The position numbers and the translations under genes are program-made. A model generated the notes under the pieces. That model did not search any database. It was not told where the DNA came from and saw only the letters and a program-made list of their open reading frames with translations. A stretch of 64,000 nucleotides of DNA, taken from the NCBI GenBank assembly GCA_902521725.1, contig CABYTF010000003.1, forward strand, positions 81,709 to 145,708. Reading direction: 5' to 3'. The stretch is from an uncultured Gammaproteobacteria bacterium (GTDB taxonomy: Bacteria > Pseudomonadota > Gammaproteobacteria > GCA-002705445 > GCA-002716945). Below are positions 4,023 to 58,489 of the stretch, piece by piece (positions within the stretch are counted from its first letter, which is position 1; each line of letters starts with the position of its first letter).

Positions 4023-4997
4023 TTGTATCATTTAAGTGTAATTATGCATAAAATTTATCCACTCATAGAAAGCACTGACTTTCCACATATAGAGAGAGAT
4101 GACCTTAATATATTACAGGTTAATCTTGGTTATAAATGTAATCAGAGATGTCTCCACTGTCACGTTAATGCTGGTCCTAATAGGAAAGAAATGATGGATC
4201 TGAAAACTATCAATGAAGTGATAAAATTTTCAGTAGATAATAATATCAAAATAATCGATTTAACAGGTGGTGCACCAGAAATAAATAAGCACTTCAAATA
4301 TATTGTCCAGACTTGTAAAGAAAATAATATCCATATCATCGATAGGTGCAATCTAACAATCCTTGAAAGTGAGGGCATGAGAGATCTACCAAAATTTTTA
4401 GCAAAACATAAAATTGAGATAATTGCTTCACTACCTTGTTATATTGAAGAAAATGTAAATTCCCAACGTGGAGAAGGTGTTTTCAAGCAAAGCATCGAAG
4501 CGTTGAAAAAACTTAATTCACTTGGATATGGAAAGGATGAGGAATTAATATTGAATTTAGTCTATAACCCACAAGGCCCTGAATTACCACCAGAGCAAAG
4601 TAAACTGCAAGTCGACTATAAAAATTTTCTTGGTGAAAAATATAAGATATTTTTTAATAAACTTTATACAATTACAAATATGCCAATTAGTAGATTTGGA
4701 AGTACATTAGTCAGTAAAAAAATATTCCATGACTACATGAGTCTACTCAAGAATTCTTTTTCTAGCTTAGCATTGAAACAAGTAATGTGCAGAGGGCTCA
4801 TCAGCATAGATTATAATGGCTATGTTTATGATTGTGACTTCAATCAGATGCTTGATATGCCTCTGTCTGGTAAAAGAACCCATATATCAGAAGTTAATAT
4901 GAAAAGCCTCAAAGGAAAAAAGATTGCGACAGCTGACCACTGTTATGGTTGTACTGCTGGAACAGGAAGTAGTTGCTCTGGATCTTTAGTTCAATAG
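4023..4997 (+). CDS. radical SAM/Cys-rich domain protein (ArsS-like, rSAM-selenodomain family, Cys form)
   Basis: N-terminal CNQRCLHCHV (CxxxCxxC) radical SAM cluster motif preceded by LQVNLG. C-terminal Cys-rich tail HCYGCTAGTGSSCSGS. Followed by the GT2 and DUF2064 genes that habitually accompany this family. Confidence 0.7.
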   Translation: MYHLSVIMHKIYPLIESTDFPHIERDDLNILQVNLGYKCNQRCLHCHVNAGPNRKEMMDLKTINEVIKFSVDNNIKIIDLTGGAPEINKHFKYIVQTCKENNIHIIDRCNLTILESEGMRDLPKFLAKHKIEIIASLPCYIEENVNSQRGEGVFKQSIEALKKLNSLGYGKDEELILNLVYNPQGPELPPEQSKLQVDYKNFLGEKYKIFFNKLYTITNMPISRFGSTLVSKKIFHDYMSLLKNSFSSLALKQVMCRGLISIDYNGYVYDCDFNQMLDMPLSGKRTHISEVNMKSLKGKKIATADHCYGCTAGTGSSCSGSLVQ

Positions 4998-24024: not shown

Positions 24025-24834
24025 ATGTCCACATCAAAGTCAAAATTAGAAATTAATAACCTTCCAGACACGCAAGGCCAGGCTGATACAAGAAACATGC
24101 CAATTAACAAAGTAGGGATAAAAGACATAGTTCATCCTATGATTATTAAGCAAAGATCAGGTAAAGAGCAATCTACAATTGCAAACTTCAACATGTATGT
24201 AAATCTTCCTCATGATTTCAAGGGCACCCATATGTCAAGATTCGTTCATATTCTTAATAATCATGAAGAACAAATTACAGTTGACTCCTTCAAAAAAATG
24301 ATTGATGAAATGCTTATTCTTCTTGAAGCAGAATCGGGTCATATTGAAATGAAGTTTCCATATTTTATTAATAAAACTGCACCTGTTTCAAAAGTACAAA
24401 GCTTGCTTGACTACTCTGTGTCTTTAATAGGTGAGATTGAAGACGGTAAATCAAAATTGAAAGTCAAAGTTTTAGTGCCTGTAACTAGCCTTTGCCCATG
24501 CTCAAAGAAAATTTCAGATTATGGAGCTCACAATCAAAGATCTCATGTAACGATTACAGTCACGATAAATGACTTTATATGGATTGAGGAAATAATTGAT
24601 ATAGTGGAAAAAGAAGCCTCGTCTGAATTGTATGGTTTGCTAAAAAGACCAGATGAAAAATTTGTTACAGAGCGAGCTTATGATAATCCCAAATTTGTTG
24701 AAGACATGGTCAGAGATATTGCGGTACACTTCAACAATGATGATAGAGTGACTGAGTATGTCGTTGAATCTGAGAATTTTGAGTCAATACATAATCACTC
24801 AGCGTATGCTCAGATTCATAAAGTCAAAGATTAA
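24025..24834 (+). CDS. folE2: GTP cyclohydrolase FolE2 (type IB)
   Basis: [22 protein letters not shown] matches the FolE2/MptA signature region. Confidence 0.8.
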
Positions 24835-47249: not shown

Positions 47250-47941
47250 TGTTCGTATACAATTTCTATAAATTCATAAATATTCCTGATTTATCTATAA
47301 AAAAAGATATTTTGTTAAAAAGGCTAAATCATTTAAATATAAAAGGGACGATTCTCTTGGCAGCTGAGGGTATCAATGTAAACATAAGTCAAAAAAAACA
47401 ACTTCTTGATAAGGCATTAAAGGTTATTAATGAGCAAATATCTTTGGAAGATATACATATAAATAAAACAAAGAGTGATGATATCGCTTTTCAAAAACTC
47501 AAAGTGAAAGTGAAGAATGAAATTATTAGATTTAATTCTCTATTAAAGTATAGTGATAAAAAATATTTAAAATGCATCACTCCTCAACATTGGGATGAAA
47601 TAATTAAAAATGATGCTCAAATCATCGATATGAGAAATAATTTCGAATACAACTTAGGGACATTCAAAGGTGCCATAAATCTTTGTCTGATAAACTTTAC
47701 AGACCTTAAGGATAAGACTAATGAGCTAGACAAGTTAGATAGAAAAAAGAAAACTGCAATCTTTTGTACTGGTGGGATTAGATGTGAAAAGGCTGGAAAA
47801 TACCTCAGTGATATTGGTTTTGAGGATATATATCAACTTCAAGGCGGAATAATTAACTATTTAAATAGCACAAAGAATAAATATTGGAAAGGTGAATGCT
47901 TTGTATTTGATGACAGAATACTACTAAAAGGTAACTCGTAA
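47249..47941 (+). CDS. trhO: rhodanese-domain tRNA U34 hydroxylase (UPF0176/YceA)
   Basis: FCTGGIRCEKA rhodanese active-site loop. Located next to yceI. Confidence 0.7.
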   Translation: MFVYNFYKFINIPDLSIKKDILLKRLNHLNIKGTILLAAEGINVNISQKKQLLDKALKVINEQISLEDIHINKTKSDDIAFQKLKVKVKNEIIRFNSLLKYSDKKYLKCITPQHWDEIIKNDAQIIDMRNNFEYNLGTFKGAINLCLINFTDLKDKTNELDKLDRKKKTAIFCTGGIRCEKAGKYLSDIGFEDIYQLQGGIINYLNSTKNKYWKGECFVFDDRILLKGNS

Positions 47942-48892
47942 TATTTCTTTTTTGACACTATTGTAATTACTGATATTCATTCTAAATACTTCTATAAGAT
48001 TTACATCACTTGAAAATCGGTCACTTTTTGAATGTTTGATTATGAATTCAAAGTCATTGGGGACATTTGTGTTCTCTTTCACCATGAAATCATTGGATGT
48101 GAACTTTACATTAAAGTTGGCACTGTTTATTTTAACTCTTTTAATGGCGAAAGGCTGATTAATATTTTTCTCTTTCAATATCATAAAGAAGTAGCCCTCG
48201 TATTTATCCCTCGAAGTAACTGATAAGTCTAGTATGGTTTGAGATAGACCTGAACTATCTTTTAGGTTTGTTAGTAATTTCTTATATTCATTTTTATTAG
48301 CTATATTTGGATGTTGGATTATTTCATTCAATGTATTTTGTGCAAGAAGATTATCATTCACATTGAAAGAAAAACTTAGAAGATCTAGTAAAGCTTGAGG
48401 TTCATTGGTTTTGTCAATGTAAATAACAAAATATTTTTCTATCAAATCTTTATTGATAATCTCGCCATCGCTCCTTAGTACTAATATGTACTCACGAAGT
48501 GCGTCCATATTATCAGGTCTTAAATTAATAGCTATCTGATATGCTTTTGATGCTTTTTGATAATTTTTCAGAATCGAATACGATTTTCCAAGCATCAACC
48601 ACCCATTGAAGTCGTCTGAAGAATTAAGAAGCCGTGATTCTAGTTTGGGTATATTTTCTCTGATAGTTTTAATATTATTACGCACTGACATATTCTTAGA
48701 GTGAATTTTTTTGTAATCAGCTGTATTAGATAGGTCATAACTTAATGAAAAAATATAGACGGTGATTACCGATAAAAATAGGACAATAAATAAATACAAC
48801 TTCATGCTCGTAAATTGTCCATCAACATTTCTACTCTTGAAGAGAATAAATAAATATATGAGGATGATCACAGAGAGGAAAATATAAATCAT
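47924..48892 (-). CDS. ccmI: cytochrome c-type biogenesis protein CcmI-like (TM + TPR)
   Basis: N-terminal TM helices then TPR-like repeats (GWLMLGKSYSILKNYQKASKAYQIAI). Last gene of the ccm cluster. Confidence 0.5.
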   Translation of the reverse strand: MIYIFLSVIILIYLFILFKSRNVDGQFTSMKLYLFIVLFLSVITVYIFSLSYDLSNTADYKKIHSKNMSVRNNIKTIRENIPKLESRLLNSSDDFNGWLMLGKSYSILKNYQKASKAYQIAINLRPDNMDALREYILVLRSDGEIINKDLIEKYFVIYIDKTNEPQALLDLLSFSFNVNDNLLAQNTLNEIIQHPNIANKNEYKKLLTNLKDSSGLSQTILDLSVTSRDKYEGYFFMILKEKNINQPFAIKRVKINSANFNVKFTSNDFMVKENTNVPNDFEFIIKHSKSDRFSSDVNLIEVFRMNISNYNSVKKEILRVTF

Positions 48893-49251
48893 TTTATATA
48901 TCGCCTAAGCAAGAAATATCCTAGGAACATTATGAATATAAATGGGCCAAGCCAAAGGAGGATATTTTGCATATTAACAGGTGGGTCGTAAAGGATGTAT
49001 GAGCTATATCTTTCAGACAAAAAACTTTTTATTTCTTTTTCAGTCTTACCAGCTTCAAGCATATCTCGAATTTTTTCTTTCATATCTACTGCTAAGGGCG
49101 CTTCCGACTCTGCAAGATTTTGATTTTGACAAACCATGCATCTAAGCTCCTCAATGAGCTTTGTGTATTGTCTTTCAATATCAACTGACGCAAATGATGT
49201 GTTGCTTATCAATAAGAAAATCATTAAGTGGTAAATTCTCATCTTATTCAC
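48889..49251 (-). CDS. ccmH: cytochrome c-type biogenesis protein CcmH
   Basis: LRCMVCQNQNLAESEAPLA is the LRCxxC motif. Confidence 0.85.
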   Translation of the reverse strand: MNKMRIYHLMIFLLISNTSFASVDIERQYTKLIEELRCMVCQNQNLAESEAPLAVDMKEKIRDMLEAGKTEKEIKSFLSERYSSYILYDPPVNMQNILLWLGPFIFIMFLGYFLLRRYIK

Positions 49252-49798
49252 TCAGAATAGGTAGCATTTCCTCTTGGATAATTTGATTATTGATGGGTCC
49301 AATATGTTTGTATTGAATTACTTGATTTTTATCCAAAATATATGTCTCAGGCACTCCATATACACCAAGATCAAGTGATAAATCACCTATGCTGTCTTTG
49401 ATAATTATCCTATAGGGATTTCCCCTCATGCTCAACCATCCCATAGCTTCACTTGTCTCATCCTTATAATTAATCCCAATCATATCAATATCTTTATTTT
49501 TTGAAAGCTGAATCAAATATGAGTGCTCTCTCTCACATTCAAGACACCAACTAGCCCATACATTTACAATAGTTTTTTTTTCTAGGAAGTTACTATTTGT
49601 AAGTGTGTCCTTGGTATATAGATCTGTTAGTTTAAATTCCGGAAAAGTTTTGCCAATCAAAGGGGATTCAATCTTTTTAGGATCATAGTGCAGCCCTTTA
49701 TACAGGAATATAGTTACGGATATAAAAATTAGGGCATAGAAGATAGTGATTTTATTCATATATTTTCGATTGCTTAAATCTAATACTAAATATAGCAC
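49244..49798 (-). CDS. ccmG: thiol:disulfide interchange protein DsbE/CcmG
   Basis: WASWCLEC CxxC thioredoxin motif. Single N-terminal TM. Confidence 0.8.
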   Translation of the reverse strand: MLYLVLDLSNRKYMNKITIFYALIFISVTIFLYKGLHYDPKKIESPLIGKTFPEFKLTDLYTKDTLTNSNFLEKKTIVNVWASWCLECEREHSYLIQLSKNKDIDMIGINYKDETSEAMGWLSMRGNPYRIIIKDSIGDLSLDLGVYGVPETYILDKNQVIQYKHIGPINNQIIQEEMLPILSE

Positions 49799-51641
49799 CT
49801 AATATCATGAATATCGTCCCAATCCATATAAGTCTAATCAATGGTTTATCGTAAATTCTCATAGACCATTTATTATCAGATACCATATTTCCAAGTGAAA
49901 CATAAAGATCCCTATCGAGCCTTCCATTTATACCTGCTTCGGTCATCGGAGAATCACTTGAGTGATATAGCCTTTTTTCTGGATTAATTTCTGTAATGAA
50001 TCTGTCATCTTTACTGACAATAATAGAAGCAATTACCGCATCATAATTAGCAGACTTAAACTCTTTGAGATTTTCAAATCTATAATCAAAGACACCTACT
50101 TTTTTTGACTCTCCAATTTCAAGAGTAAACTCTTTCTCTATTTTATTACTCTCTGAGACGCTTGCTCCAATTATAAATATCGCCAGACCAAAATGTGCAA
50201 AGTACATGCCTACTCTTCTTCTAATTTTCACAGAATTATCTGACGATCTATAGAAATCAAAAAGTATATTCGCAATGATCCAAACAGTAGAAAATATACC
50301 AACGAAAAAAAGTACAGATTGTACGGAAAAGATAAATGACAAAAATATACTAATAACAAATATTATAAATAACTGAACTAGTTGTGAATCAATTGAGGTC
50401 CTTGACAGAAGAATAGGAACATAGCCAACCAATAATATCAATGGAATCATTAAAGGCACAAACACAGCATTATAGTAAGGAACCCCCACAGAAATTTTTT
50501 CAAGTCCCAATATATCTAAAAATAACGGATACATTGTTCCAAGAAGGATAGTAAATGTAGCTGTTACAAGAAGAATATTGTTAAGTAAAAAGAAACCTTC
50601 CCTAGAAATAAGTCTTACGTCACTGTCGTCTATGAATTTTTTTGAGTTTAGTGCATAAGATAAAAGTCCTCCACCTATCAATGCAACCAGCATAAATAAT
50701 ATAAATACTCCCCTGGAAGGGTCATTTGCAAAAGAATGAACAGAGATCAAAATACCAGATCTAACTAAAAAAGTGCCAAGCAAACTTAAAGAAAAAGTAA
50801 AAATCGATAATAATATTGTCCAACTTTTAAAAATTCCTCTTTCACTTGTAGCAATCACCGAATGAAGAAGCGCTGTAGCCATAAGCCATGGCATAAAGGA
50901 TGCGTTTTCGACGGGATCCCAGAACCACCATCCTCCCCAGCCTAATTCATAGTATGCCCACCAACTTCCAAGCGCTATCCCTAAAGTTAGAAATGCCCAC
51001 GAGGCTAATACCCAAGGTCTGATCCATTGAGCCCATTCTTTTTTGAAATCATCCTCGAAACAACACGCAACGGCAAAAGAGAAAACAACTGATAGACCAA
51101 CATATCCCATATACAACATTGGAGGGTGAACTATTAAGCCAAAATCTTGTAAAAGTGGATTGAGGTCATTTCCATCAAGAGGGATAGTCATATTTCTATC
51201 AAAAGGATTGGAGGTTGCGACCACAAAAAGAAGAAAGCCAAGATTAAGGATGCCCATTATCGCTAAAAAATTGACTCTCAGGCGCTTGTGTAGATTAGTA
51301 CTGTACATACTTGCAAGAAACATCCAAAAACTTGAGACCACGCACCATAAAAGCATTGATCCCTCATGTCCTGCCCATGCTGCTGATATTTTATATATGA
51401 GCGGAAGGCTTGAATTTGAATTTTTAGATACATAATCTAGAGAGTAGTCTTCACCTACAAAAGTTGTTATCAAGCATAAAAAGGAGATAAGTATAATTGG
51501 AAAGTGTAATTTAGATGCAGAGAATAATATTTCCTGTGAAATATTTGAATTTGTTAATACTTTGGGCGAAAGCAGTATAATACAATTCATAAGGCCTAAT
51601 AGTAGAAGGAAGTGCCCGACATATCCAATCTCGATAATCAT
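49752..51641 (-). CDS. ccmF: cytochrome c-type biogenesis heme lyase CcmF
   Basis: GWGGWWFWDPVEN WWD domain. 629 aa polytopic. Confidence 0.9.
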   Translation of the reverse strand: MIIEIGYVGHFLLLLGLMNCIILLSPKVLTNSNISQEILFSASKLHFPIILISFLCLITTFVGEDYSLDYVSKNSNSSLPLIYKISAAWAGHEGSMLLWCVVSSFWMFLASMYSTNLHKRLRVNFLAIMGILNLGFLLFVVATSNPFDRNMTIPLDGNDLNPLLQDFGLIVHPPMLYMGYVGLSVVFSFAVACCFEDDFKKEWAQWIRPWVLASWAFLTLGIALGSWWAYYELGWGGWWFWDPVENASFMPWLMATALLHSVIATSERGIFKSWTILLSIFTFSLSLLGTFLVRSGILISVHSFANDPSRGVFILFMLVALIGGGLLSYALNSKKFIDDSDVRLISREGFFLLNNILLVTATFTILLGTMYPLFLDILGLEKISVGVPYYNAVFVPLMIPLILLVGYVPILLSRTSIDSQLVQLFIIFVISIFLSFIFSVQSVLFFVGIFSTVWIIANILFDFYRSSDNSVKIRRRVGMYFAHFGLAIFIIGASVSESNKIEKEFTLEIGESKKVGVFDYRFENLKEFKSANYDAVIASIIVSKDDRFITEINPEKRLYHSSDSPMTEAGINGRLDRDLYVSLGNMVSDNKWSMRIYDKPLIRLIWIGTIFMILGAIFSIRFKQSKIYE

Positions 51642-52093
51642 TGAGTAATACTTTCCATAGTTTTATATTTACCATCTTCAGTTAAGCCTAGTGAGTCTTT
51701 TACCTCTGGTGGCATGTAGGTCTCATCATGTTTTGCTAGCACCTCCTCGGCGACAAAAAGGTTATTCTGAAGGTAACCTCTAATCACGACACCCTGACCC
51801 TCTCTAAAAAGATCTGGTAATATTCCATCATACTTAACTAAGACTTTGTTGTTAAAGTCTGTAACGTTAAAAGAAACTTTCTTTGTCCCTGATACTCTAA
51901 TAAGTGAGCCCTCCTCGACCATTCCTCCGATTCTAAATATATAATTATCCGGGAAGTTACCATTAACTAATTGAGTTGGGCTACGGTAATATAACAAGTT
52001 TTCATTAAATGTTTTAACGAATGCATACAAAACGAATCCTAAAATAACGAGTAAAAAGGAAACATAGTAAATTCTTGCGGATCTTTTCTTCAT
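51638..52093 (-). CDS. ccmE: cytochrome c-type biogenesis protein CcmE
   Basis: VLAKHDETYMPPEV heme-binding His region. Confidence 0.85.
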   Translation of the reverse strand: MKKRSARIYYVSFLLVILGFVLYAFVKTFNENLLYYRSPTQLVNGNFPDNYIFRIGGMVEEGSLIRVSGTKKVSFNVTDFNNKVLVKYDGILPDLFREGQGVVIRGYLQNNLFVAEEVLAKHDETYMPPEVKDSLGLTEDGKYKTMESITQ

Positions 52094-52100
52094 AAGCAGT

Positions 52101-52223
52101 CTATCTTTCAGAGATTTTTTTTCTAATTTCTCTACCTTTGTATATCAAAATAAGCACAACCAAAACCATTGGTACAATTACCAAGAAATATGCCCAAAAT
52201 ATGTAAGGTGCGTAATCAAACAT
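52101..52223 (-). CDS. ccmD: heme exporter protein D (40 aa; not in ORF track)
   Basis: Manual translation gives MFDYAPYIFWAYFLVIVPMVLVVLILIYKGREIRKKISER. Single TM plus basic tail. Lies 7 bp upstream of ccmE. Confidence 0.55.
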   Translation of the reverse strand: MFDYAPYIFWAYFLVIVPMVLVVLILIYKGREIRKKISER

Positions 52224-52944: not shown

Positions 52945-53120
52945 TGAAAATTAAAAAGCAAAAAAAGTGCTCACAATGTTCAAAGGAATTTTATAAACTT
53001 TTCCGATGCAGATACGGGAATACAGACTGGGTTTTTTTATGTCAGGATTGCCTATCCAAAGTTAAGCAAAAGTATGACAAATCATATCAATATGGGGGAA
53101 CCTGGAAATCAACTAATTGA
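52944..53120 (+). CDS. small zinc-ribbon protein (CxxC...CxxC)
   Basis: MKIKKQKKCSQCSKEFYKLFRCRYGNTDWVFLCQDCLSK. The tracked ORF starts earlier, in the overlap with the upstream gene. Confidence 0.4.
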   Translation: MKIKKQKKCSQCSKEFYKLFRCRYGNTDWVFLCQDCLSKVKQKYDKSYQYGGTWKSTN

Positions 53121-53481
53121 TCTCAATTATTGAATTACATAAGTCTTTGTATTCTCTCTCTACTTTTAGATCTGAATACCTTTGACCTTTTTCTTGAGCT
53201 TCATATGACCAAGACTCCATGATACTTGTAATAGACAATATATAACTGGATGTTGATACTTCTGGATATCGAGTCATGAAAATTTCTTTTAGATTATTAA
53301 AGTATTTATTATGATAATTGTATTTTTCTTCTCCGAAATACTGGCTGTTGAGTTTTTCTTTGAAATGGTAAGCCGAACAAGTCAATAGATTACTTTTATC
53401 ATAAGTCTTATCTGCAAGAGATGTATGTGAAATCGCAATAAGCGAGAATATTGAGATTAGAGATAATAGGTTCTTAGTCAT
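53113..53481 (-). CDS. secreted hypothetical protein
   Basis: Signal peptide LLSLISIFSLIAISHTSLA. 122 aa. Confidence 0.35.
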   Translation of the reverse strand: MTKNLLSLISIFSLIAISHTSLADKTYDKSNLLTCSAYHFKEKLNSQYFGEEKYNYHNKYFNNLKEIFMTRYPEVSTSSYILSITSIMESWSYEAQEKGQRYSDLKVEREYKDLCNSIIEIN

Positions 53482-53550
53482 GAATTGAGTATATGTTGAT
53501 GAACTATAATTACAAATATATTTTTATTTAATGAGACTAATTTTCAAATG

Positions 53551-53579
53551 ATATTATGCCGAGTAACCCGACATAATAT
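53551..53579 (-). terminator. AT-rich hairpin (8-bp stem atattatg/cataatat, 13-nt loop) just past the TonB receptor stop
   Basis: Seen directly. The stem is all A/T and there is no clear U-tract, so this is weak. Confidence 0.2.
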
Positions 53580-53590
53580 CTTTGTGCCCT

Positions 53591-55561
53591 CTAGAATTTG
53601 TAATCAAGCGATACGTCAAATCCGAAGCTTGATGCTGGTAGTGGGACATGTGCTTTTACAAATGAAGCATGGTTTCTTCTAGTCGTATCTAATAAATTGT
53701 TACCAAATAGATTCACGTTGAGATCATAGTTGTTACTAATGGCAATCTTATTTGAGTATTTCATTGCAAGATCAACATAGGAATTTGTTTCTGTCTCAAT
53801 AGATGAAAAATCTTTTTGACTCTCTGAGAAAATTAAACTTATTACATATGTCTCATTTTTATGACCCAGTATAGCTAGATCTAAAACATTTTTAGCGCTA
53901 GGTATTCTTGGTACATATGTATCGTTTTCAAATGTTGCAGATATATCATCCCTACTTAGGGTAAGAAATAAATCAGTATCACCTAGAGTAAATGGTTTCA
54001 TGTATGAAATTTCATAGCCTTGAAATACAGCATCTTTTTGAGACCAATTAGCATCTTGATGTGTGCCATCATAAGTCTTGGTACCTAAATCTCTCAAGTA
54101 AATAAAGTCTTTAACATCATTGTGATAGAGAGAAAAATCTAAAATGGAATCTCCGCTTGTAAACTGAAGTCCTAGATCAATATTTTTTGAGACTTCTCTA
54201 TCAAGTGAACTATCCCCCTTCTCATATCTGTTTGTCGGTCCATGTTTCCCATCTGCAAATAATTCAGCCATATTGGGGCTTCTTGATACATGTGATAGAC
54301 CCAGATTATATGACAGATTATCTGTAATTTGCTGACTGGTGTTTGTAGATATGCTAATTGCTGAGTCTTCATAATTTTTCGTCGAAGTTAGTCTCTCATT
54401 AAAATCATATCTAAGCGCATAATTAAAATCTAAACCATACATCTTTGACTGAGAGTAATATGCAATTGATCGATCAAAGCTCTCTGACTTTGGAACATAT
54501 GCATTGCTTGAAAATGGGGATTTGGCATGCTCATAACTTAGCAGTAATCTTTTTTCAATATCATTGGAATCAAGATTAAACTTAAAATTATATGCTGTAG
54601 AGTTATTATTCATAACTTTGAAGGTCCCGTTTTCTTCATGCTCTTTAATGTGTGCATTCGTATTGCTGATAGAAAAGTCAAGAGAATGTGCAAATGCAAG
54701 GTTGTCCAATCTTCCGATAAAATTATATGTATCTGACTTATGTGCTGAATAAATCCTATGCTCGCCCTCTTCCTCTTCTTCCTCTTCTTCCTCAGCGTGA
54801 TAGGCTATACCATAAGTACCTTTATTATTCACAAAAGAGAAACTTAAGTAACCCCAATCCTTGATCAATGATAATCCAATAGTTGAACTTTTATCAGCGT
54901 AGTCAGAATTATTTAAGGTATGGACTTCACTACCCTCTTCATAGAGCGATCCCTCTGATAGATCATACTTAAAATAATCTCTCTTATCTTGTGAGAAGTA
55001 AAATGCAATGTCACTGATATTTTTCTTAAGAAGGAAATTATTTGAATAACCTTCGCTGACAGTATCGTAAGATCTACCTAAACTTATTATTTCATCAGTG
55101 TACAACTTATCTGTAGATGAGCCTGTGATTACGTTAACTATACCACCGGTGGTTCCACTGTGATTGAATAATGACGATGGACCTTTGATGATCTCTATGT
55201 GCGATGCATGATTTAGATTTAACATAACCGGATGATCCGCACTGAAAAAACTCAAATCGCTGACATAGTTATTGTTTGAAAGCACTCTCACTCTACTGCC
55301 TCCTAAACCTCTAATGACCGGTTGACCGACAGAAGTACCGTAATCAGAATTAGACACTCCTGGGATACGCCTTAAGTTGGTACCGATAGATTTAGACGGA
55401 TCTAAGTCTTTACCTTCTATTAAAGATGCGGGATATTTATTTTCTGTAATTGAATTAGATAAAATTGATGACTCAACTTTAATAGACGTGAGATCCTCAG
55501 AATGTACATATGGTGTTACAAATAATGCCGCTACTAATGGCATTAACCTAAAAGTTTTCAT
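53591..55561 (-). CDS. TonB-dependent outer-membrane receptor with internal poly-Glu/His loop (ZnuD-like?)
   Basis: Signal peptide and plug region (IRGLGGSRV, GPSSLFN). C-terminal ...LDYKF terminal Phe. Internal YHAEEEEEEEEEGEHRIYSAH segment. Confidence 0.75.
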   Translation of the reverse strand: MKTFRLMPLVAALFVTPYVHSEDLTSIKVESSILSNSITENKYPASLIEGKDLDPSKSIGTNLRRIPGVSNSDYGTSVGQPVIRGLGGSRVRVLSNNNYVSDLSFFSADHPVMLNLNHASHIEIIKGPSSLFNHSGTTGGIVNVITGSSTDKLYTDEIISLGRSYDTVSEGYSNNFLLKKNISDIAFYFSQDKRDYFKYDLSEGSLYEEGSEVHTLNNSDYADKSSTIGLSLIKDWGYLSFSFVNNKGTYGIAYHAEEEEEEEEEGEHRIYSAHKSDTYNFIGRLDNLAFAHSLDFSISNTNAHIKEHEENGTFKVMNNNSTAYNFKFNLDSNDIEKRLLLSYEHAKSPFSSNAYVPKSESFDRSIAYYSQSKMYGLDFNYALRYDFNERLTSTKNYEDSAISISTNTSQQITDNLSYNLGLSHVSRSPNMAELFADGKHGPTNRYEKGDSSLDREVSKNIDLGLQFTSGDSILDFSLYHNDVKDFIYLRDLGTKTYDGTHQDANWSQKDAVFQGYEISYMKPFTLGDTDLFLTLSRDDISATFENDTYVPRIPSAKNVLDLAILGHKNETYVISLIFSESQKDFSSIETETNSYVDLAMKYSNKIAISNNYDLNVNLFGNNLLDTTRRNHASFVKAHVPLPASSFGFDVSLDYKF

Positions 55562-55591
55562 TTATTACTCCTTAATTAATTAAAAAAAATT

Positions 55592-55837
55592 TTAATTAAT
55601 CAGAAGTGGTGGAGCTCGAGTAAAGAAGTATTCTTGAGAGCATTGCTCATGTAAACTCTCTATTTTTTTAGAGAGGGTTTCCTCAAGACAGTGATGTTCT
55701 TTAATGAAATAAACTGAATGGACTTTACCGCATTGGCGACAAACTGAACTGTGTATATGATCATTATCATGGCACTGCTCAGTATGGGTATGTTCGTTTA
55801 CATGATCATGATTATCGCACATGAGATTATGATACAA
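55592..55837 (-). CDS. His/Cys-rich small protein (putative metal-binding), co-directional and upstream of the TonB receptor
   Basis: MCDNHDHVNEHTHTEQCHDNDHIHSSVCRQCGKVH. Confidence 0.4.
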   Translation of the reverse strand: MYHNLMCDNHDHVNEHTHTEQCHDNDHIHSSVCRQCGKVHSVYFIKEHHCLEETLSKKIESLHEQCSQEYFFTRAPPLLIN

Positions 55838-55957
55838 TAAACCATGTCAAAAAGAACTAAATCATTGATCTTAATTATATTTAGTTTGACCGCGTTCTAT
55901 GTTTATCAATATGTCATTGGTATTCTTATTTTATTGCTTGCTATACATACCATAATG

Positions 55958-55981
55958 AATGATTGAATATGCTTGATCATT
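55958..55981. promoter_or_regulatory. candidate Fur/Zur-family operator-like palindrome (AATGAT-n12-ATCATT) upstream of the His-rich gene/TonB receptor operon
   Basis: Palindromic AATGATTGAATATGCTTGATCATT about 120 bp upstream of the 55837 start. Resembles the AATGAT/ATCATT halves of Fur-type boxes. Confidence 0.25.
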
Positions 55982-56109
55982 TGATGTTGATGAGAATTAG
56001 GACTGCTAAACCCACAAAAGAGACTCCAATAAGAAGAAGCTTAAAAATCTCCATTAAAATTACTTTCTTTGTTTTGTCTTTTTCAGCCATAAATATAAGG
56101 TGATTCTCG

Positions 56110-56301
56110 CTAGCCGTAAATAAAAAACCAAATTATTATCAAGACTAATGGAAAAACAACGCTGCCAAATGGATTTGCTTTTAGCATCTCTAGTGACATT
56201 CTTGGATTTGTAAACCAGGCATTTAGAAACTTATATAAATCGGTGGACACAAGCAAGACAATTGCAGCAATTAAAAGATAAAAAAGGATATCATACAACA
56301 T
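56110..56301 (-). CDS. small membrane protein, unknown
   Basis: 63 aa with two TM segments. Confidence 0.25.
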   Translation of the reverse strand: MLYDILFYLLIAAIVLLVSTDLYKFLNAWFTNPRMSLEMLKANPFGSVVFPLVLIIIWFFIYG

Positions 56302-56355: not shown

Positions 56356-56724
56356 TTAGAACTTATACTTTGTGTTTATCTTTAGCTGATTGTTATCTTT
56401 AGCTGATGAGTTTAGCTTACTTTCAAACTGAACCTCAAGATCAAGAGAATCAAAATACTTAGTCTCAAATCCAACTTTATAATAATCATAGTCTGATCCA
56501 GATCCAATGGATTGCCCTTCGGTTATGTCCTCTCCAAAACCTATTTCACCAAAAACTTGATAGCCATCGAGCGTAATATTTCTACCAATAACTACTCTTT
56601 GCTCTGTCTGTTCATAAGCTCCATTTTTAAATTTCAGCTCATGCTCTGAGGCAATATAATTATAATCTGAAGCATAAATATCATATGCAAAAGTAGCTAA
56701 ACCAATTAACAACAATTTTTTCAT
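56356..56724 (-). CDS. small secreted beta-rich (OMP-like) protein
   Basis: Signal peptide MKKLLLIGLATFAYDIYA. Alternating hydrophobic pattern. C-terminal ...KYKF. Confidence 0.4.
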   Translation of the reverse strand: MKKLLLIGLATFAYDIYASDYNYIASEHELKFKNGAYEQTEQRVVIGRNITLDGYQVFGEIGFGEDITEGQSIGSGSDYDYYKVGFETKYFDSLDLEVQFESKLNSSAKDNNQLKINTKYKF

Positions 56725-56815: not shown

Positions 56816-57421
56816 ATGGGTATATATAAATTCATTGGATTATTTGTTGCGCTTATGTCAGCGTCAATAGTTGAGGCCCGTCCAATATCATGGACTGGAG
56901 GTTCAACGATAATGTATAAATCCAACTCAATGATGTCATCGTACTACTATCATTATTCGCCGAGTTTTAAATATTCAGTGGGCGCTGAATATATAAATGA
57001 TAGATATTATAATGATCAATACATTAGTATACGATCTACCTATCTGTTAGACAGGAAAAATACTAAAGCATCTCAGAGAAATTTATATCTAACTGCATCA
57101 ATATCTACAAAAAATAACGATGATTTGTACTATGGCGTCCATGGTGATTGGGAGACACGGAGGTACTTTACTTCTTTTTCAATACTTGATAAACGTGCTA
57201 GTCAAGAGGATTATACTGAAAATGAATTCCAAATAGGTATAGCGCCATACCTTGGAGAATATAATCAGCTTCATACATGGATCATGCTCAAATCAAAAAA
57301 AGATACTAGAGAAGATAAATGGAAAACTTATCCTTTTATCAAGCTATTTAAAGGGGATTTTTTATTAGAAGTTGGAAGTAAAGAGTCGCATTGGGATTTA
57401 CATTTCATGAAAAGGTTTTAA
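56816..57421 (+). CDS. Tyr-rich secreted outer-membrane-like protein
   Basis: Signal peptide ...SIVEA. Amphipathic beta pattern. C-terminal aromatic ...KRF. Confidence 0.4.
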   Translation: MGIYKFIGLFVALMSASIVEARPISWTGGSTIMYKSNSMMSSYYYHYSPSFKYSVGAEYINDRYYNDQYISIRSTYLLDRKNTKASQRNLYLTASISTKNNDDLYYGVHGDWETRRYFTSFSILDKRASQEDYTENEFQIGIAPYLGEYNQLHTWIMLKSKKDTREDKWKTYPFIKLFKGDFLLEVGSKESHWDLHFMKRF

Positions 57422-57438
57422 ATTTATAGGGAGAAAAT

Positions 57439-57849
57439 ATGTATAAAATAATAATATTAACAACATTATTCATTTCTAATAACTTATATGCAATGGATAA
57501 TATGCATGATCATGATTCAAAACAACATGATCATAATTCACATGTTGCAGTAGATGGTTCAAAAACAAAATTAGACGACGCAATGTATAATAAATTCGTC
57601 TCTGACCTTGGTAGTTCTCAAGTAGTTATCGTTGATGTTAATGGAATGGTATGTGACTTTTGTGCCAGAGGAATTGAAAAAACATTTTACGACGATGCTT
57701 TAGTAAAAAGAGTACTAGTAAGTCTTGAGACTGGAAAAGTGCTTATTGCCTATGATAATGCTAAAAAAGTAGACTTTGGAGAAATTAAGAATATATTTTT
57801 ATCTAATGGACAGTCAGCTACTGGTATGACATTGAAGAAAATTACATGA
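57439..57849 (+). CDS. periplasmic heavy-metal-associated (HMA) domain protein, MerP-like with His-rich N-terminal region
   Basis: Signal peptide. MHDHDSKQHDHNSH region. GMVCDFCARGIEK (GMxCxxC) HMA motif. Confidence 0.65.
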   Translation: MYKIIILTTLFISNNLYAMDNMHDHDSKQHDHNSHVAVDGSKTKLDDAMYNKFVSDLGSSQVVIVDVNGMVCDFCARGIEKTFYDDALVKRVLVSLETGKVLIAYDNAKKVDFGEIKNIFLSNGQSATGMTLKKIT

Positions 57850-58223
57850 CCAATAAACAAGAATCGTCAAAGCTAGGTTTGTTGACGCTTTTAGCTTCAA
57901 CGTCAACATTAATATGTTGTGCTTTACCTGCACTGTTTGTAGCCCTCGGTGCAGGCGCTACTTTTGCATCAATGGTTAATGCTTTTCCGCAGCTTGTTGT
58001 AATTTCACACTATAAAATATATATATCGGTTATAACGTTAATAATTCTTGTTATTGCTGGTCTTTTAATTGAAAAATCTAAAAATGATCCATGTCCAGTA
58101 GATCCAGATTTAAGAGACATTTGCTTGAGAACCAGAAAAAGGACTTCTAGTATCTATTACGTATCTGTTGGTATATTCATATTCGCTAGCTTCTTCACTT
58201 ACGTTCTACCGGAGTATCTATAA
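57846..58223 (+). CDS. MerT-like metal transport membrane protein
   Basis: TM1 contains vicinal Cys (STLICCALPALFVALGAG) as in MerT. A second Cys (DPCPVD) lies in the loop. 125 aa. Confidence 0.5.
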   Translation: MTNKQESSKLGLLTLLASTSTLICCALPALFVALGAGATFASMVNAFPQLVVISHYKIYISVITLIILVIAGLLIEKSKNDPCPVDPDLRDICLRTRKRTSSIYYVSVGIFIFASFFTYVLPEYL

Positions 58224-58225
58224 CT

Positions 58226-58489
58226 ATGAAAGATCATCCATCGCATCAATCTCAGTTGTCTGCTCTTAAAAGAGTCGAAGGTCAAATTAGAGGTGTAATC
58301 AAAATGATTGATGAGGGTAAATATTGTATAGATGTCATAAACCAGATCAAAGCTGCAAAAGCTGCTTTAGTAAGAATTGAGTCAAATGTTCTAAAAAAAC
58401 ACGTTGAATCTTGTGTAGTAGAGTCATTTAAAAATAAGAAAGCTCTTGATAATAAAGTCGAAGAGCTATTAAAGTTGATCAATAAATGA
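58226..58489 (+). CDS. csoR: CsoR/RcnR/FrmR-family metal-sensing repressor (CsoR-like C-H-C spacing)
   Basis: LKRVEGQIRGVIKMIDEGKYCIDVINQIKAAKAAL. Cys34, His59, Cys63 have the same spacing as the M. tuberculosis CsoR ligands. Confidence 0.7.
   Translation: MKDHPSHQSQLSALKRVEGQIRGVIKMIDEGKYCIDVINQIKAAKAALVRIESNVLKKHVESCVVESFKNKKALDNKVEELLKLINK

Follow-up and report, generated by a model that had tools for sequence, protein, structure and literature searches.

How is the synthesis of a predicted outer-membrane metal receptor controlled in a free-living marine gammaproteobacterium, and what is the function of the small His/Cys-rich open reading frame (ORF) that lies directly before the receptor gene? 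These questions are raised by positions 53591-55981 of a 64-kb stretch of DNA (G+C 32.5%), which is referred to here, at its full length, as the window. A reading of the sequence alone had drawn attention to a TonB-dependent receptor with a Glu9-His insertion, to the small ORF, and to a Fur/Zur-like palindrome. In this report, we favor with moderate confidence the proposal that the upstream ORF (uORF) encodes a regulatory leader peptide whose translation arrest senses a metal, probably zinc, such that the ribosome-binding site (RBS) of the receptor gene would be unmasked under metal scarcity. What appears to be new here, as judged from sequence comparisons and structural models, is an unannotated signal-less variant of the metal-sensing RAPP arrest peptides, joined to a ZnuD-type receptor by a hairpin that sequesters the Shine-Dalgarno (SD) sequence.

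The relatives designated L001-L015 are loci from metagenomes or metagenome-assembled genomes (MAGs) that were used for comparison or as clade representatives. The close relatives all come from marine metagenomes or from MAGs labelled only Gammaproteobacteria.

The upstream ORF and its RxPP motif

The sequence-only reading described the small ORF as an 81-aa protein packed with His and Cys and encoded co-directionally with the receptor. The composition and the orientation were borne out, but the start was not. The TTG start of the 81-aa version is unshared by the relatives, and the conserved start is the ATG at 55822, which gives a protein of 76 aa (MCDNHDH...) containing 11 His and 6 Cys. The features of the uORF and of the mRNA that follows it are as follows.

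55592-55822, minus strand: the uORF, 76 aa, MCDNHDHVNEHTHTEQCHDNDHIHSSVCRQCGKVHSVYFIKEHHCLEETLSKKIESLHEQCSQEYFFTRAPPLLIN, a proposed metal-sensing translation-arrest leader peptide.
55742-55822, minus strand: the variable N-terminal tract of the uORF, residues 1-27, rich in His, Asp, Glu and Cys.
55688-55741, minus strand: the Cys/His core of the uORF, C28-x2-C31-G-x2-H35-x3-F-I-x2-H43-H44-C45, a proposed metal-binding knuckle.
55607-55618, minus strand: RAPP, Arg69-Ala-Pro-Pro72 of the uORF, a proposed ribosome-arrest motif, with the stop four codons later.
55567-55607, minus strand: the mRNA hairpin between the uORF end and the receptor SD, from RNAfold and covariation.

Conservation of the small ORF was checked at every readable receptor-homologue locus, and an upstream ORF was found at each of them. 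It is 74-98 aa long before every receptor homologue examined (47-93% receptor identity) and occurs in three different genomic contexts, including the unrelated context of a receptor that is 47% identical. The uORF precedes the receptor in all 46 loci with both genes readable. A profile search returned 72 protein relatives of the uORF, none of them annotated in Pfam, and a metagenome scan added 39 further loci. The relatives share the core C-x2-C-G-x2-H-[ST]-x2-F-I-x2-H-[HY]-C and, further on, a C-terminal R-[ADGS]-P-P. Among 41 aligned relatives, C28, C31, G32, H35, F39, I40, and H43 are invariant and C45 is kept in at least 90%; in 36 unique DNA sequences the same residues, C45 included, are invariant. 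Invariant residues are nevertheless encoded by different synonymous codons (CGA, CGT, CGC, and CGG for Arg, four for Gly, three for Ile, and two or three for Cys, His, Phe, and Pro), and differences at the third position dominate in the uORF DNA (14022 vs 8971 and 6906). This pattern indicates that the uORF is translated and conserved at the protein level.

The N-terminal 25-50 residues of the uORF are variable in sequence and retain their richness in His, Asp, and Glu, as in HHERTLHHHEHHEHHEHH (L014) and HEHKHDDHCHHDNHCHHDEHE (L012). The notion that the His/Asp-rich start of the uORF (GATAATCATGATCAT...) is simply Fur-box DNA read as protein was ruled out, since the relatives are His-rich with unrelated sequences and the conservation is synonymous. 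The AlphaFold model of the uORF contains a β-hairpin (residues 25-27 and 34-36) around the CxxC, followed by helices; the predicted local distance difference test score (pLDDT) is 63 overall and about 66-81 for these elements. A fold search with this model returned nothing significant, and the weak matches (E > 2) were mostly zinc fingers and ribbons. The uORF is not preceded by an SD sequence in any clade. Hexamers resembling a −10 element lie 6-8 nt before the ATG (at 32% GC these carry no evidential weight), a scan for σ70 promoters found none that was convincing immediately upstream of the uORF, and the uORF mRNA may be leaderless. A 40-aa ORF on the plus strand starts about 20 nt from the uORF start codon, and thus the uORF promoter must overlap it.

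The RxPP motif is invariant in the relatives, where it occurs as RAPP (36), RDPP (13), RGPP (11), or RSPP (8). The distance from the CxxC to the RxPP was found to be 37 residues in 60 of the 61 signal-less relatives and 44 residues in all 7 membrane-type relatives, and the tail beyond the Pro-Pro is 2-9 residues across the relatives. In the uORF of the window, CRQC occupies residues 28-31 and RAPP residues 69-72, a spacing of 37, and the uORF is the sole RxPP-ending ORF within the 64 kb. In bacterial proteomes, no tetrapeptides are more under-represented than RAPP and RGPP, and RDPP and RSPP are avoided as well; RAPP and RGPP arrest most readily, whereas RDPP and RSPP are only partially permissive when substituted into ApdA/ApdP (PMC12992588). 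The arrest function of RAPP is established for ApdA/ApdP and for CruR (PMC10951233; PMC12992588; PMC9426467), and for CruR the arrest was shown in vitro, the P and A sites being occupied by the two Pro codons (PMC12992588).

A second type of uORF is found within the group of receptors of 46-48% identity. It has an N-terminal membrane/signal segment, the motif HLHLDEHxHxxEHxCxxC, a second hydrophobic stretch, and an RSPPLL end. The uORF of the window has no hydrophobic segment, with a maximum Kyte-Doolittle value (15-residue window) of 0.43 vs 2.7 for relatives of the membrane type. When the membrane-type uORFs were used in an exhaustive profile search, 9 proteins only were reached, among them neither the signal-less type nor the large DUF2946 family, and hhalign aligned the signal-less and membrane types over the last 22 columns only, with a probability of 56%. 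The membrane-type relatives look like intermediates toward CruR, a link left unproven by sequence methods. A Pseudomonadales MAG (L003) also carries a membrane-type CxxC...RAPP uORF, before a receptor that is 26% identical; its CxxC-RxPP spacing is 43, the uORF-receptor spacer is about 117 nt with the ATG at 4198 taken as the receptor start, and the gene neighborhood gives no clue to the metal.

A predicted hairpin over the receptor Shine-Dalgarno sequence

The uORF stop is 30 nt from the receptor gene in the window, with both genes on the same strand, and the locus is best explained as a two-gene operon in the order uORF and then receptor. The distance from the uORF stop to the receptor ATG is 27-41 nt in 46 of 46 loci, and a strong receptor SD is always present. 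For the window and for 6 other clade representatives, RNAfold predicts a hairpin in which bases at or just after the Pro-Pro codons pair with the receptor SD. The 5′ arm in the window (55607-55590, ACUUCUGAUUAAUUAAAA) consists of the last base of the Pro72 codon, CUU CUG AUU AAU, the UAA stop, and two more bases, while the 3′ arm (55585-55567, UUUUAAUUAAUUAAGGAGU) ends in the receptor SD, AAGGAG (55568-55573). The paired segments shift together between clades, the combinations of anti-SD and SD being CUUCU or CUCCU with AGGAG, CUCUC with GAGAG, GCUCC with GGAGC, CCUAG with CUAGG, and CUCUU with AAGGAG.

The predicted pairing was quantified across 33 unique loci. The probability that the SD is unpaired is 0.03, and 0.86 of the SD pairing is directed to the 16 nt from the first Pro codon, which is the footprint of the stalled ribosome. 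The anti-SD is always located within the footprint of a ribosome stalled at Pro-Pro (offsets −8 to +1). When the bases of the footprint were masked, the computed cost of opening the RBS fell from 8.3 ± 1.7 to 3.0 ± 1.5 kcal/mol for the 33 unique sequences, and from 7.3 to 2.5 kcal/mol for the locus of the window. The leading edge of a ribosome stalled at Pro-Pro would be about 23 nt before the SD, a workable geometry. Shuffles of the upstream part gave p = 0.01-0.04 in 5 of 6 clades, with a Fisher-combined value of 7e-5.

A covariance model built from the clade of the window alone was found to locate an element ending at the receptor ATG in the other tested clades except L014, with E values of 1e-6 to 0.07. 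In the 24 best matches to this model, 88.5% of the cells are paired, and in 8 of 16 pairs both partners change; a covariation score of 0.29 was obtained, vs 0.15 for shuffles (0 of 500 reach it) and 0.03-0.10 for slid controls. MAFFT followed by RNAalifold on all clades gave no consensus structure, because the register shifts, and this was overcome by the single-clade covariance model. A second copy of CUUCU is present at 55621-55632 on the minus strand, in uORF codons 65-68 (UAC UUC UUU ACU) just before RAPP, and could be an alternative partner of the SD or a part of a three-way switch.

In the pairs SecM-secA, MifM-yidC2, and ErmCL-ermC, and in ApdA/ApdP, the stalled ribosome melts a stem-loop that hides a downstream RBS. 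On the basis of thermodynamics and covariation, the hairpin described here fits an RBS unmasking of the SecM/MifM/ErmCL type. The uORF would share with SecM, MifM, ErmCL, and ApdA/ApdP a C-terminal arrest motif that stalls the ribosome, the motif being RAPP in ApdA/ApdP (PMC7897499, PMC10951233). The difference is in the input, which is protein export or insertion or an antibiotic in those systems and is proposed here to be a metal ion bound by the nascent chain. The combination of a RAPP motif with post-motif codons that pair with the SD suggests that control of the receptor is most probably post-transcriptional, instead of or besides control at an operator.

A hairpin opened by upstream translation is also what classical, simple translational coupling would require, and the product of the uORF could then be a stable cytoplasmic metal-binding protein, either a mini zinc-ribbon or a metallochaperone, that is merely coupled to the receptor, with RAPP having no regulatory role. 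The strong conservation of the Cys/His core as protein and the hint of a small fold in the AlphaFold model agree with such a product. We nonetheless regard this explanation as improbable. It does not account for an RxPP that is invariant, held at a fixed distance from the CxxC, placed 2-9 residues from the stop, and drawn from the most avoided tetrapeptides, nor for an anti-SD that always lies in the Pro-Pro stall footprint, and it is hard to see why a cytoplasmic chaperone would be paired with an outer-membrane receptor. A single uORF product could fill both roles.

The ZnuD-like receptor and its Glu/His loop

The sequence-only reading of the 656-aa protein as a TonB receptor was confirmed by the Plug and TonB-barrel domains found in the ORF at 53591-55561. 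The features of the receptor gene are as follows.

53591-55561, minus strand: the TonB-dependent receptor, 656 aa, ZnuD-like, with signal peptide, plug and 22-strand barrel.
54758-54799, minus strand: the loop-3 segment H255-A-E9-G-E-H268, a proposed extracellular metal-capture loop.
55232-55237, minus strand: Asp109-His110 in the apical loop of the receptor plug, the equivalents of ZnuD Asp99-His100.
54242-54244, minus strand: His440 (FADGKHGPTN) of the receptor, the equivalent of ZnuD His499.
53545-53584, minus strand: a hairpin directly 3′ of the receptor stop, a likely transcript end.

The Pfam matches are PF07715 (Plug, 7e-12) and PF00593 (TonB_dep_Rec_b-barrel, 1.8e-15). The AlphaFold model shows a plug and about 22 strands (pLDDT 76, predicted template modeling score 0.79), and more than 100 homologues of the receptor are present in marine metagenomes. 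The hairpin that follows the receptor stop has 17-18 bp, a minimum free energy of −18.8 kcal/mol, and z = −4.8, with 0 of 200 shuffles as stable. It is likely to be the end of the transcript or a stabilizer; the role of terminator is an assignment made with no long U-tract present. A strong hairpin at this position suggests that the transcribed unit is bicistronic and consists of the uORF and the receptor alone. The gene downstream of the receptor (53113-53481) has no Pfam match.

The sequence-only reading had also compared the receptor with ZnuD, and ZnuD was found to rank first by NCBIfam, by PDB sequence search, and by fold search. The top NCBIfam family is the zinc-piracy receptor ZnuD, NF038289 (1e-58), followed by families of heme/hemoglobin receptors (1e-22 and 1e-20). 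The closest solved structure by sequence is ZnuD (PDB 4rdr), with an E value of 2.6e-26 that improves to 1.1e-47 with a 46-sequence profile. Foldseek places ZnuD first as well (E = 1.2e-35, TM 0.83); the next family is eight orders weaker (1.8e-27), and the runners-up near 1e-27 are PhuR, FrpB, OprC, BtuB, and ChuA.

The buried zinc site of ZnuD is composed of Asp99, His100, Glu340, and His499 (PMC4557270); the numbering of the PDB chain is that of the paper plus 14. Asp109-His110 of the receptor align with chain residues 113-114 (Asp99-His100) in both the sequence and the profile alignments, and His440 (FADGKHGPTN) aligns with chain His513, which is His499 (YAHGKHVATN). All three residues are invariant in 46 homologues. 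Candidates for the counterpart of Glu340 are the invariant residues E307, H308, and E310 at the top of β7/loop 4. A ZnuD-like assignment is thus supported by the sequence and structure comparisons, in which three of the four ZnuD zinc ligands appear to be kept. Relative to ZnuD of Neisseria meningitidis (PDB 4RDR/4RDT/4RVW; Calmettes et al. 2015, PMC4557270), the receptor shares the buried-site zinc ligands Asp-His (plug) and His (barrel) and a His/acidic cluster at the start of extracellular loop 3. It differs in that the identity in the fold alignment is only 18-20%, loop 3 is about 19 residues long vs about 77 in ZnuD and consists of Glu almost throughout, in place of a mixture of His, Asp, and Glu, the host is marine and free-living, and a Zur box was not found here.

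The Glu9-His insertion noted from the sequence alone is present as Y254-H-A-E9-G-E-H268, with E9 encoded at 54767-54793 by a mixture of GAA and GAG. Residues 255-268 are disordered in the AlphaFold model and lie between strands 237-251 (β5) and 271-286 (β6). The segment was assigned to loop 3 by strand parity, with the first barrel strand at 158-166 and two-residue periplasmic turns at 183-184 and 235-236. In this topology the Glu-rich segment is predicted to be in an extracellular loop and not in the plug or a periplasmic turn. HAE9GEH aligns with cluster 1 of ZnuD loop 3 (241-HSHEYDDCHAD), a peripheral metal-binding element that switches conformation (PMC4557270).

The Glu/His run is kept, with a handful of exceptions, in nearly all of the 120 homologues listed, down to 46% identity. 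In 89 of 119 homologues, the insert between YH and RI[YF] has 13-14 residues; Glu makes up 72% of the insert. The sequence-only reading had suggested that the tract, as an imperfect (CTC/TTC)n repeat, could be length-variable. The number of Glu residues per run does vary among related lineages, from 6 to 10, but there is no perfect repeat and the length of the insert is nearly constant; GAA and GAG are interspersed synonymously and differently in each lineage. The synonymous differences and the near-constant length point to purifying selection on the Glu run, which keeps it at 9-10 Glu, and not to a slippage-prone perfect repeat. We therefore give very little credence to a contingency locus, in which slippage-driven length changes would vary the surface loop: the range of 6 to 10 Glu is what such a locus would produce, whereas the lineage-specific GAA/GAG mix, the constancy of the insert, and the fact that every change is in frame all speak against it.

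Distant ZnuD-like receptors of 25-27% identity (L001:818-3424, L002:5393-7522, and L003:3754-6273) also carry Glu/His runs that are similar or longer, an example of a long run being GHHHHDEGEDDEEEEEEEEG. Their hosts are Thermoanaerobaculia, Bdellovibrionales, and Pseudomonadales MAGs. These receptors came from a scan of genome contigs that was dominated by the EEEEEEEE pattern and returned only distant receptors. Their Glu/His runs suggest that the acidic loop is a trait of a wide group of receptors, and the Glu9-10/His loop, from marine Gammaproteobacteria to relatives in Bdellovibrionales and Thermoanaerobaculia, is a metagenome marker of this receptor group.

Two other classes of receptor were considered and rejected. 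The copper site of OprC is composed of Cys, Met, and His. The receptor of the window contains 0 cysteines, so an OprC-type copper site of that composition is excluded, and the match to TIGR01778 for the OprC/NosA copper receptors reaches 49 of 472 bits (3.5e-13). The gene for CrtA usually precedes a PepSY_TM gene. CrtA orthologues have 707-911 aa and form a sequence cluster that is distinct from all receptors of known structure (PMC12914433). The receptor described here has 656 aa and is ZnuD-like, and no CrtA was found among the sequence matches or the 50 best fold matches.

The metal, the operator and the proposed mechanism

Zinc and copper are the main candidates for the metal that would be sensed. 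In a rough weighting, zinc receives about half of the weight or very slightly more, copper a distinctly smaller share, and other metals the remainder. Zinc is favored by the relationship to ZnuD with conserved ligands, by the invariant set of the uORF, which resembles Cys2-His-Cys and is accompanied by hydrophobic core positions, and by a receptor without Cys. Copper is brought into consideration by CruR, the uORF that precedes the gene for the copper transporter CrtA/BfrG of Bordetella pertussis (Roy et al. 2022 PMC9426467; Hachmi et al. 2026 PMC12914433). [quoted passage not shown]

The uORF of the window has the same arrangement as CruR, with a CXXC along with a C-terminal RAPP in a gene that opens the operon and immediately precedes that of a TonB-dependent transporter. 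The proposed logic would also be the same, in that binding of metal by the nascent chain relieves arrest and the importer is turned off. It differs from CruR in having no signal sequence, whereas the RAPP/RGPP uORFs, which are enriched before TonB receptors, are almost all exported (PMC12992588). It differs further in its spacing of 37 vs 45, and in its His-rich N-terminus and additional invariant His, Cys, Phe, and Ile. PF11162 gave no match to the uORF of the window or its close relatives even at E ≤ 10, and the domain occurs in 0 of the 72 relatives. For these reasons, we provisionally file the uORF as CruR-like in its presumed way of working, not as a demonstrated member of DUF2946.

A plain CruR-type copper switch, in which Cu(I) is bound via the CxxC, Rho-dependent termination occurs before or inside the receptor gene, and the receptor imports copper or a copper chelate, is rather unlikely in our estimation. 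Besides the shared gene arrangement, it would be consistent with the spacing of 44 in the membrane-type relatives, which is within the DUF2946 value of 45 ± 2, with the sub-threshold match of one membrane-type relative to PF11162 (E = 0.051, aligned to the model end), and with a modest stretch of C > G at the 3′ end of the uORF (55581-55660). The cluster of genes for CsoR-like, HMA, and MerT-like proteins that adjoins the pair in 5 of 7 contexts also agrees with copper. On the other hand, the partner receptor is ZnuD-like, neither CrtA-like nor OprC-like, and without Cys; the spacer of 27-41 nt is filled by the SD-sequestering hairpin, in place of the 162 nt with a Rho-dependent terminator; and the additional invariant residues, His/Cys and hydrophobic, point to a folded tetrahedral site over a bare CxxC.

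The genes around the pair are summarized as follows. The divergent four-gene cluster at 56816-58489 (plus strand) adjoins the uORF-receptor region and encodes a CsoR/RicR-type repressor carrying the copper(I) fingerprint Cys34/His59/Cys63, an exported HMA/CopZ-like protein whose N-terminus is His-rich and which contains a CDFC motif, a MerT-like membrane protein, and a 201-aa signal-peptide protein with a C-terminal Phe that is outer-membrane barrel-like and has no Pfam match. The cluster of CsoR-like, HMA, and MerT-like genes is present in the relatives L006, L012, L013, and L014; it is replaced by a Redoxin and a P19-like PF10634 protein in L008/L009 and is absent in L010. Between the clusters (55844-56301) are three small conserved ORFs for membrane proteins of 63 aa (56110-56301, minus strand), 37 aa (55977-56090, minus strand), and 40 aa (55844-55966, plus strand). 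A 122-aa small outer-membrane barrel protein is encoded at 56356-56724 (minus strand), with a weak match to Phage_OMP (9e-6); its RBS is the most structured in the window, with an opening cost of 13.7 kcal/mol. Directly downstream of the receptor region are the cytochrome c maturation genes ccmD/E/F/(G)/H (47924-52223, minus strand), which are syntenic in most of the related contigs.

The sequence-only reading had placed control of the receptor at the palindrome, AATGATTGAATATGCTTGATCATT, at 55958-55981. The palindrome exists and is unique within the window, but as an operator it did not hold up. Only its outer 6 + 6 bases are complementary, and shuffling predicts 1.9 occurrences of AATGAT-N12-ATCATT, with no more than one mismatch, in each window, against the single one present. 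The palindrome runs over the stop codon of the 37-aa ORF and the end of the 40-aa ORF, two convergent ORFs for membrane proteins, and has no resemblance to a Fur box or a Zur box. In 12 clade representatives, the matches to the Fur and Zur consensus sequences that lie upstream of the uORF are at chance level for AT-rich DNA (best 11-14/19 and 12-16/23), although the Zur consensus of this lineage may differ. Control of the receptor mainly at transcription, by Fur or Zur acting on the palindrome, is accordingly very improbable. The outer hexamers do look like one half of a Fur-type AATGAT/ATCATT repeat, and L015, the closest relative, retains both arms, but L006 has a changed left arm, L012 and L008 lack the palindrome, and the consensus matches are no better than 11-14/19 and 12-16/23 in any clade. 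The remark that FolE2 is encoded elsewhere in the window was correct; this zinc-independent GTP cyclohydrolase IB (PF02649, 8e-99) is at 24025-24834 on the plus strand, 30 kb from the receptor.

From the computed anatomy, spacing, hairpin covariation, and relation to ZnuD, we infer that arrest occurs, that metal relieves it, which metal this is, and in which direction the regulation works, as follows. The ribosome would reach Pro71-Pro72 of RAPP and stall. It would then cover the next ~10 nt (CUUCUGAUU), which are otherwise paired with the receptor SD 30 nt downstream. When metal is scarce, the hairpin would be blocked, the receptor RBS would be open, and the receptor would be translated. At the stall, the His-rich N-terminus and the CxxC would be outside the exit tunnel or at its mouth, and H43/H44/C45 would be about 27 residues from the peptidyl-transferase center. 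With sufficient metal, most likely Zn2+ with Cu as the main alternative, the Cys/His core would bind the ion and fold, assisted by the His-rich N-terminus. The resulting pull on the nascent chain may free the arrest; termination would follow four codons on, the hairpin would re-form, and translation of the receptor would be turned off. Rho polarity on the untranslated receptor mRNA could reinforce the translational effect. In the receptor itself, the Glu9/His of loop 3 would gather divalent metal and hand it to the buried Asp-His...His(-Glu) site, as in Neisseria ZnuD.

A precedent for the release step is available from an engineered system. A 29-residue ADR1a zinc finger placed 24-26 residues before the SecM arrest proline gives Zn-dependent release, with folding inside the tunnel (PMC4571824). 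In the uORF, C28 is 44 residues before Pro72 and C45, the last conserved candidate ligand, is 27 residues before it. The uORF thus resembles the ADR1a-SecM force sensor (Nilsson et al. 2015, PMC4571824) in having a small Cys/His fold, here a predicted one, about 25 residues before the arrest proline; it differs in that the force sensor is an engineered reporter and the uORF a proposed natural regulator.

Several results weigh against the proposal of a metal-sensing, probably zinc-sensing, leader peptide that unmasks the receptor RBS. The sole characterized precedent, CruR, senses copper, and a CsoR-like/HMA/MerT-like cluster is nearby in 5 of 7 contexts. The curated cut-off of NF038289, a narrow "exception" model, is far from reached by the receptor (199.5 vs 950 bits), and no counterpart of ZnuD Glu340 can be aligned in the receptor. 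The uORF has no match in Pfam or NCBIfam, DUF2946 included, and the link between the signal-less and membrane types consists of gene position, shared motifs, and the weak 22-column profile match. In clade L014 the shuffle test gave p = 0.26, and the covariance model fails to place the element where it would be expected. The alignment used for the covariation score had been fitted to the structure, and the clades are related to each other. The SD of the window itself is still mostly paired after masking (probability unpaired 0.14, with weak alternative partners), and the receptor RBS ranks fourth of 19 for structure among the SD-bearing genes of the window.

Bacterial metal homeostasis has so far been explained almost wholly by metal-sensing transcription factors and a few riboswitches, and a riboswitch is known for neither Cu nor Zn (Roy et al., PMC9426467). 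What is already known is one dissected metal switch based on an arrest peptide, the copper-responsive CruR, and the common occurrence of RAPP uORFs, almost always exported, before TonB receptors. Within the collection of full-text papers that was searched, none was found to describe an arrest uORF linked to zinc and located before a TonB receptor. In the family described here, the arrest principle appears to have been re-tooled with a cytosolic, His-rich, knuckle-like sensor, a new spacing, a ZnuD-type receptor, and a SecM-like read-out by unmasking of the RBS.

Should the metal be zinc, the locus would offer a natural example of gene expression controlled by co-translational folding that is driven by a metal. 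A more specific version can be put forward only tentatively: the uORF may encode a zinc-sensing nascent peptide, the first to be found in nature, in the form of a signal-less mini zinc-knuckle that folds at or in the exit tunnel, releases the RAPP arrest, and lets the hairpin reclose the RBS of a ZnuD-type importer, in a purely translational circuit without Zur, a riboswitch, or Rho. Such a peptide, if real, would be the natural counterpart, in streamlined marine Gammaproteobacteria, of the engineered ADR1a-SecM force sensor. Genome-streamlined ocean bacteria could then tune a costly outer-membrane importer to the supply of a trace metal without a dedicated regulator.

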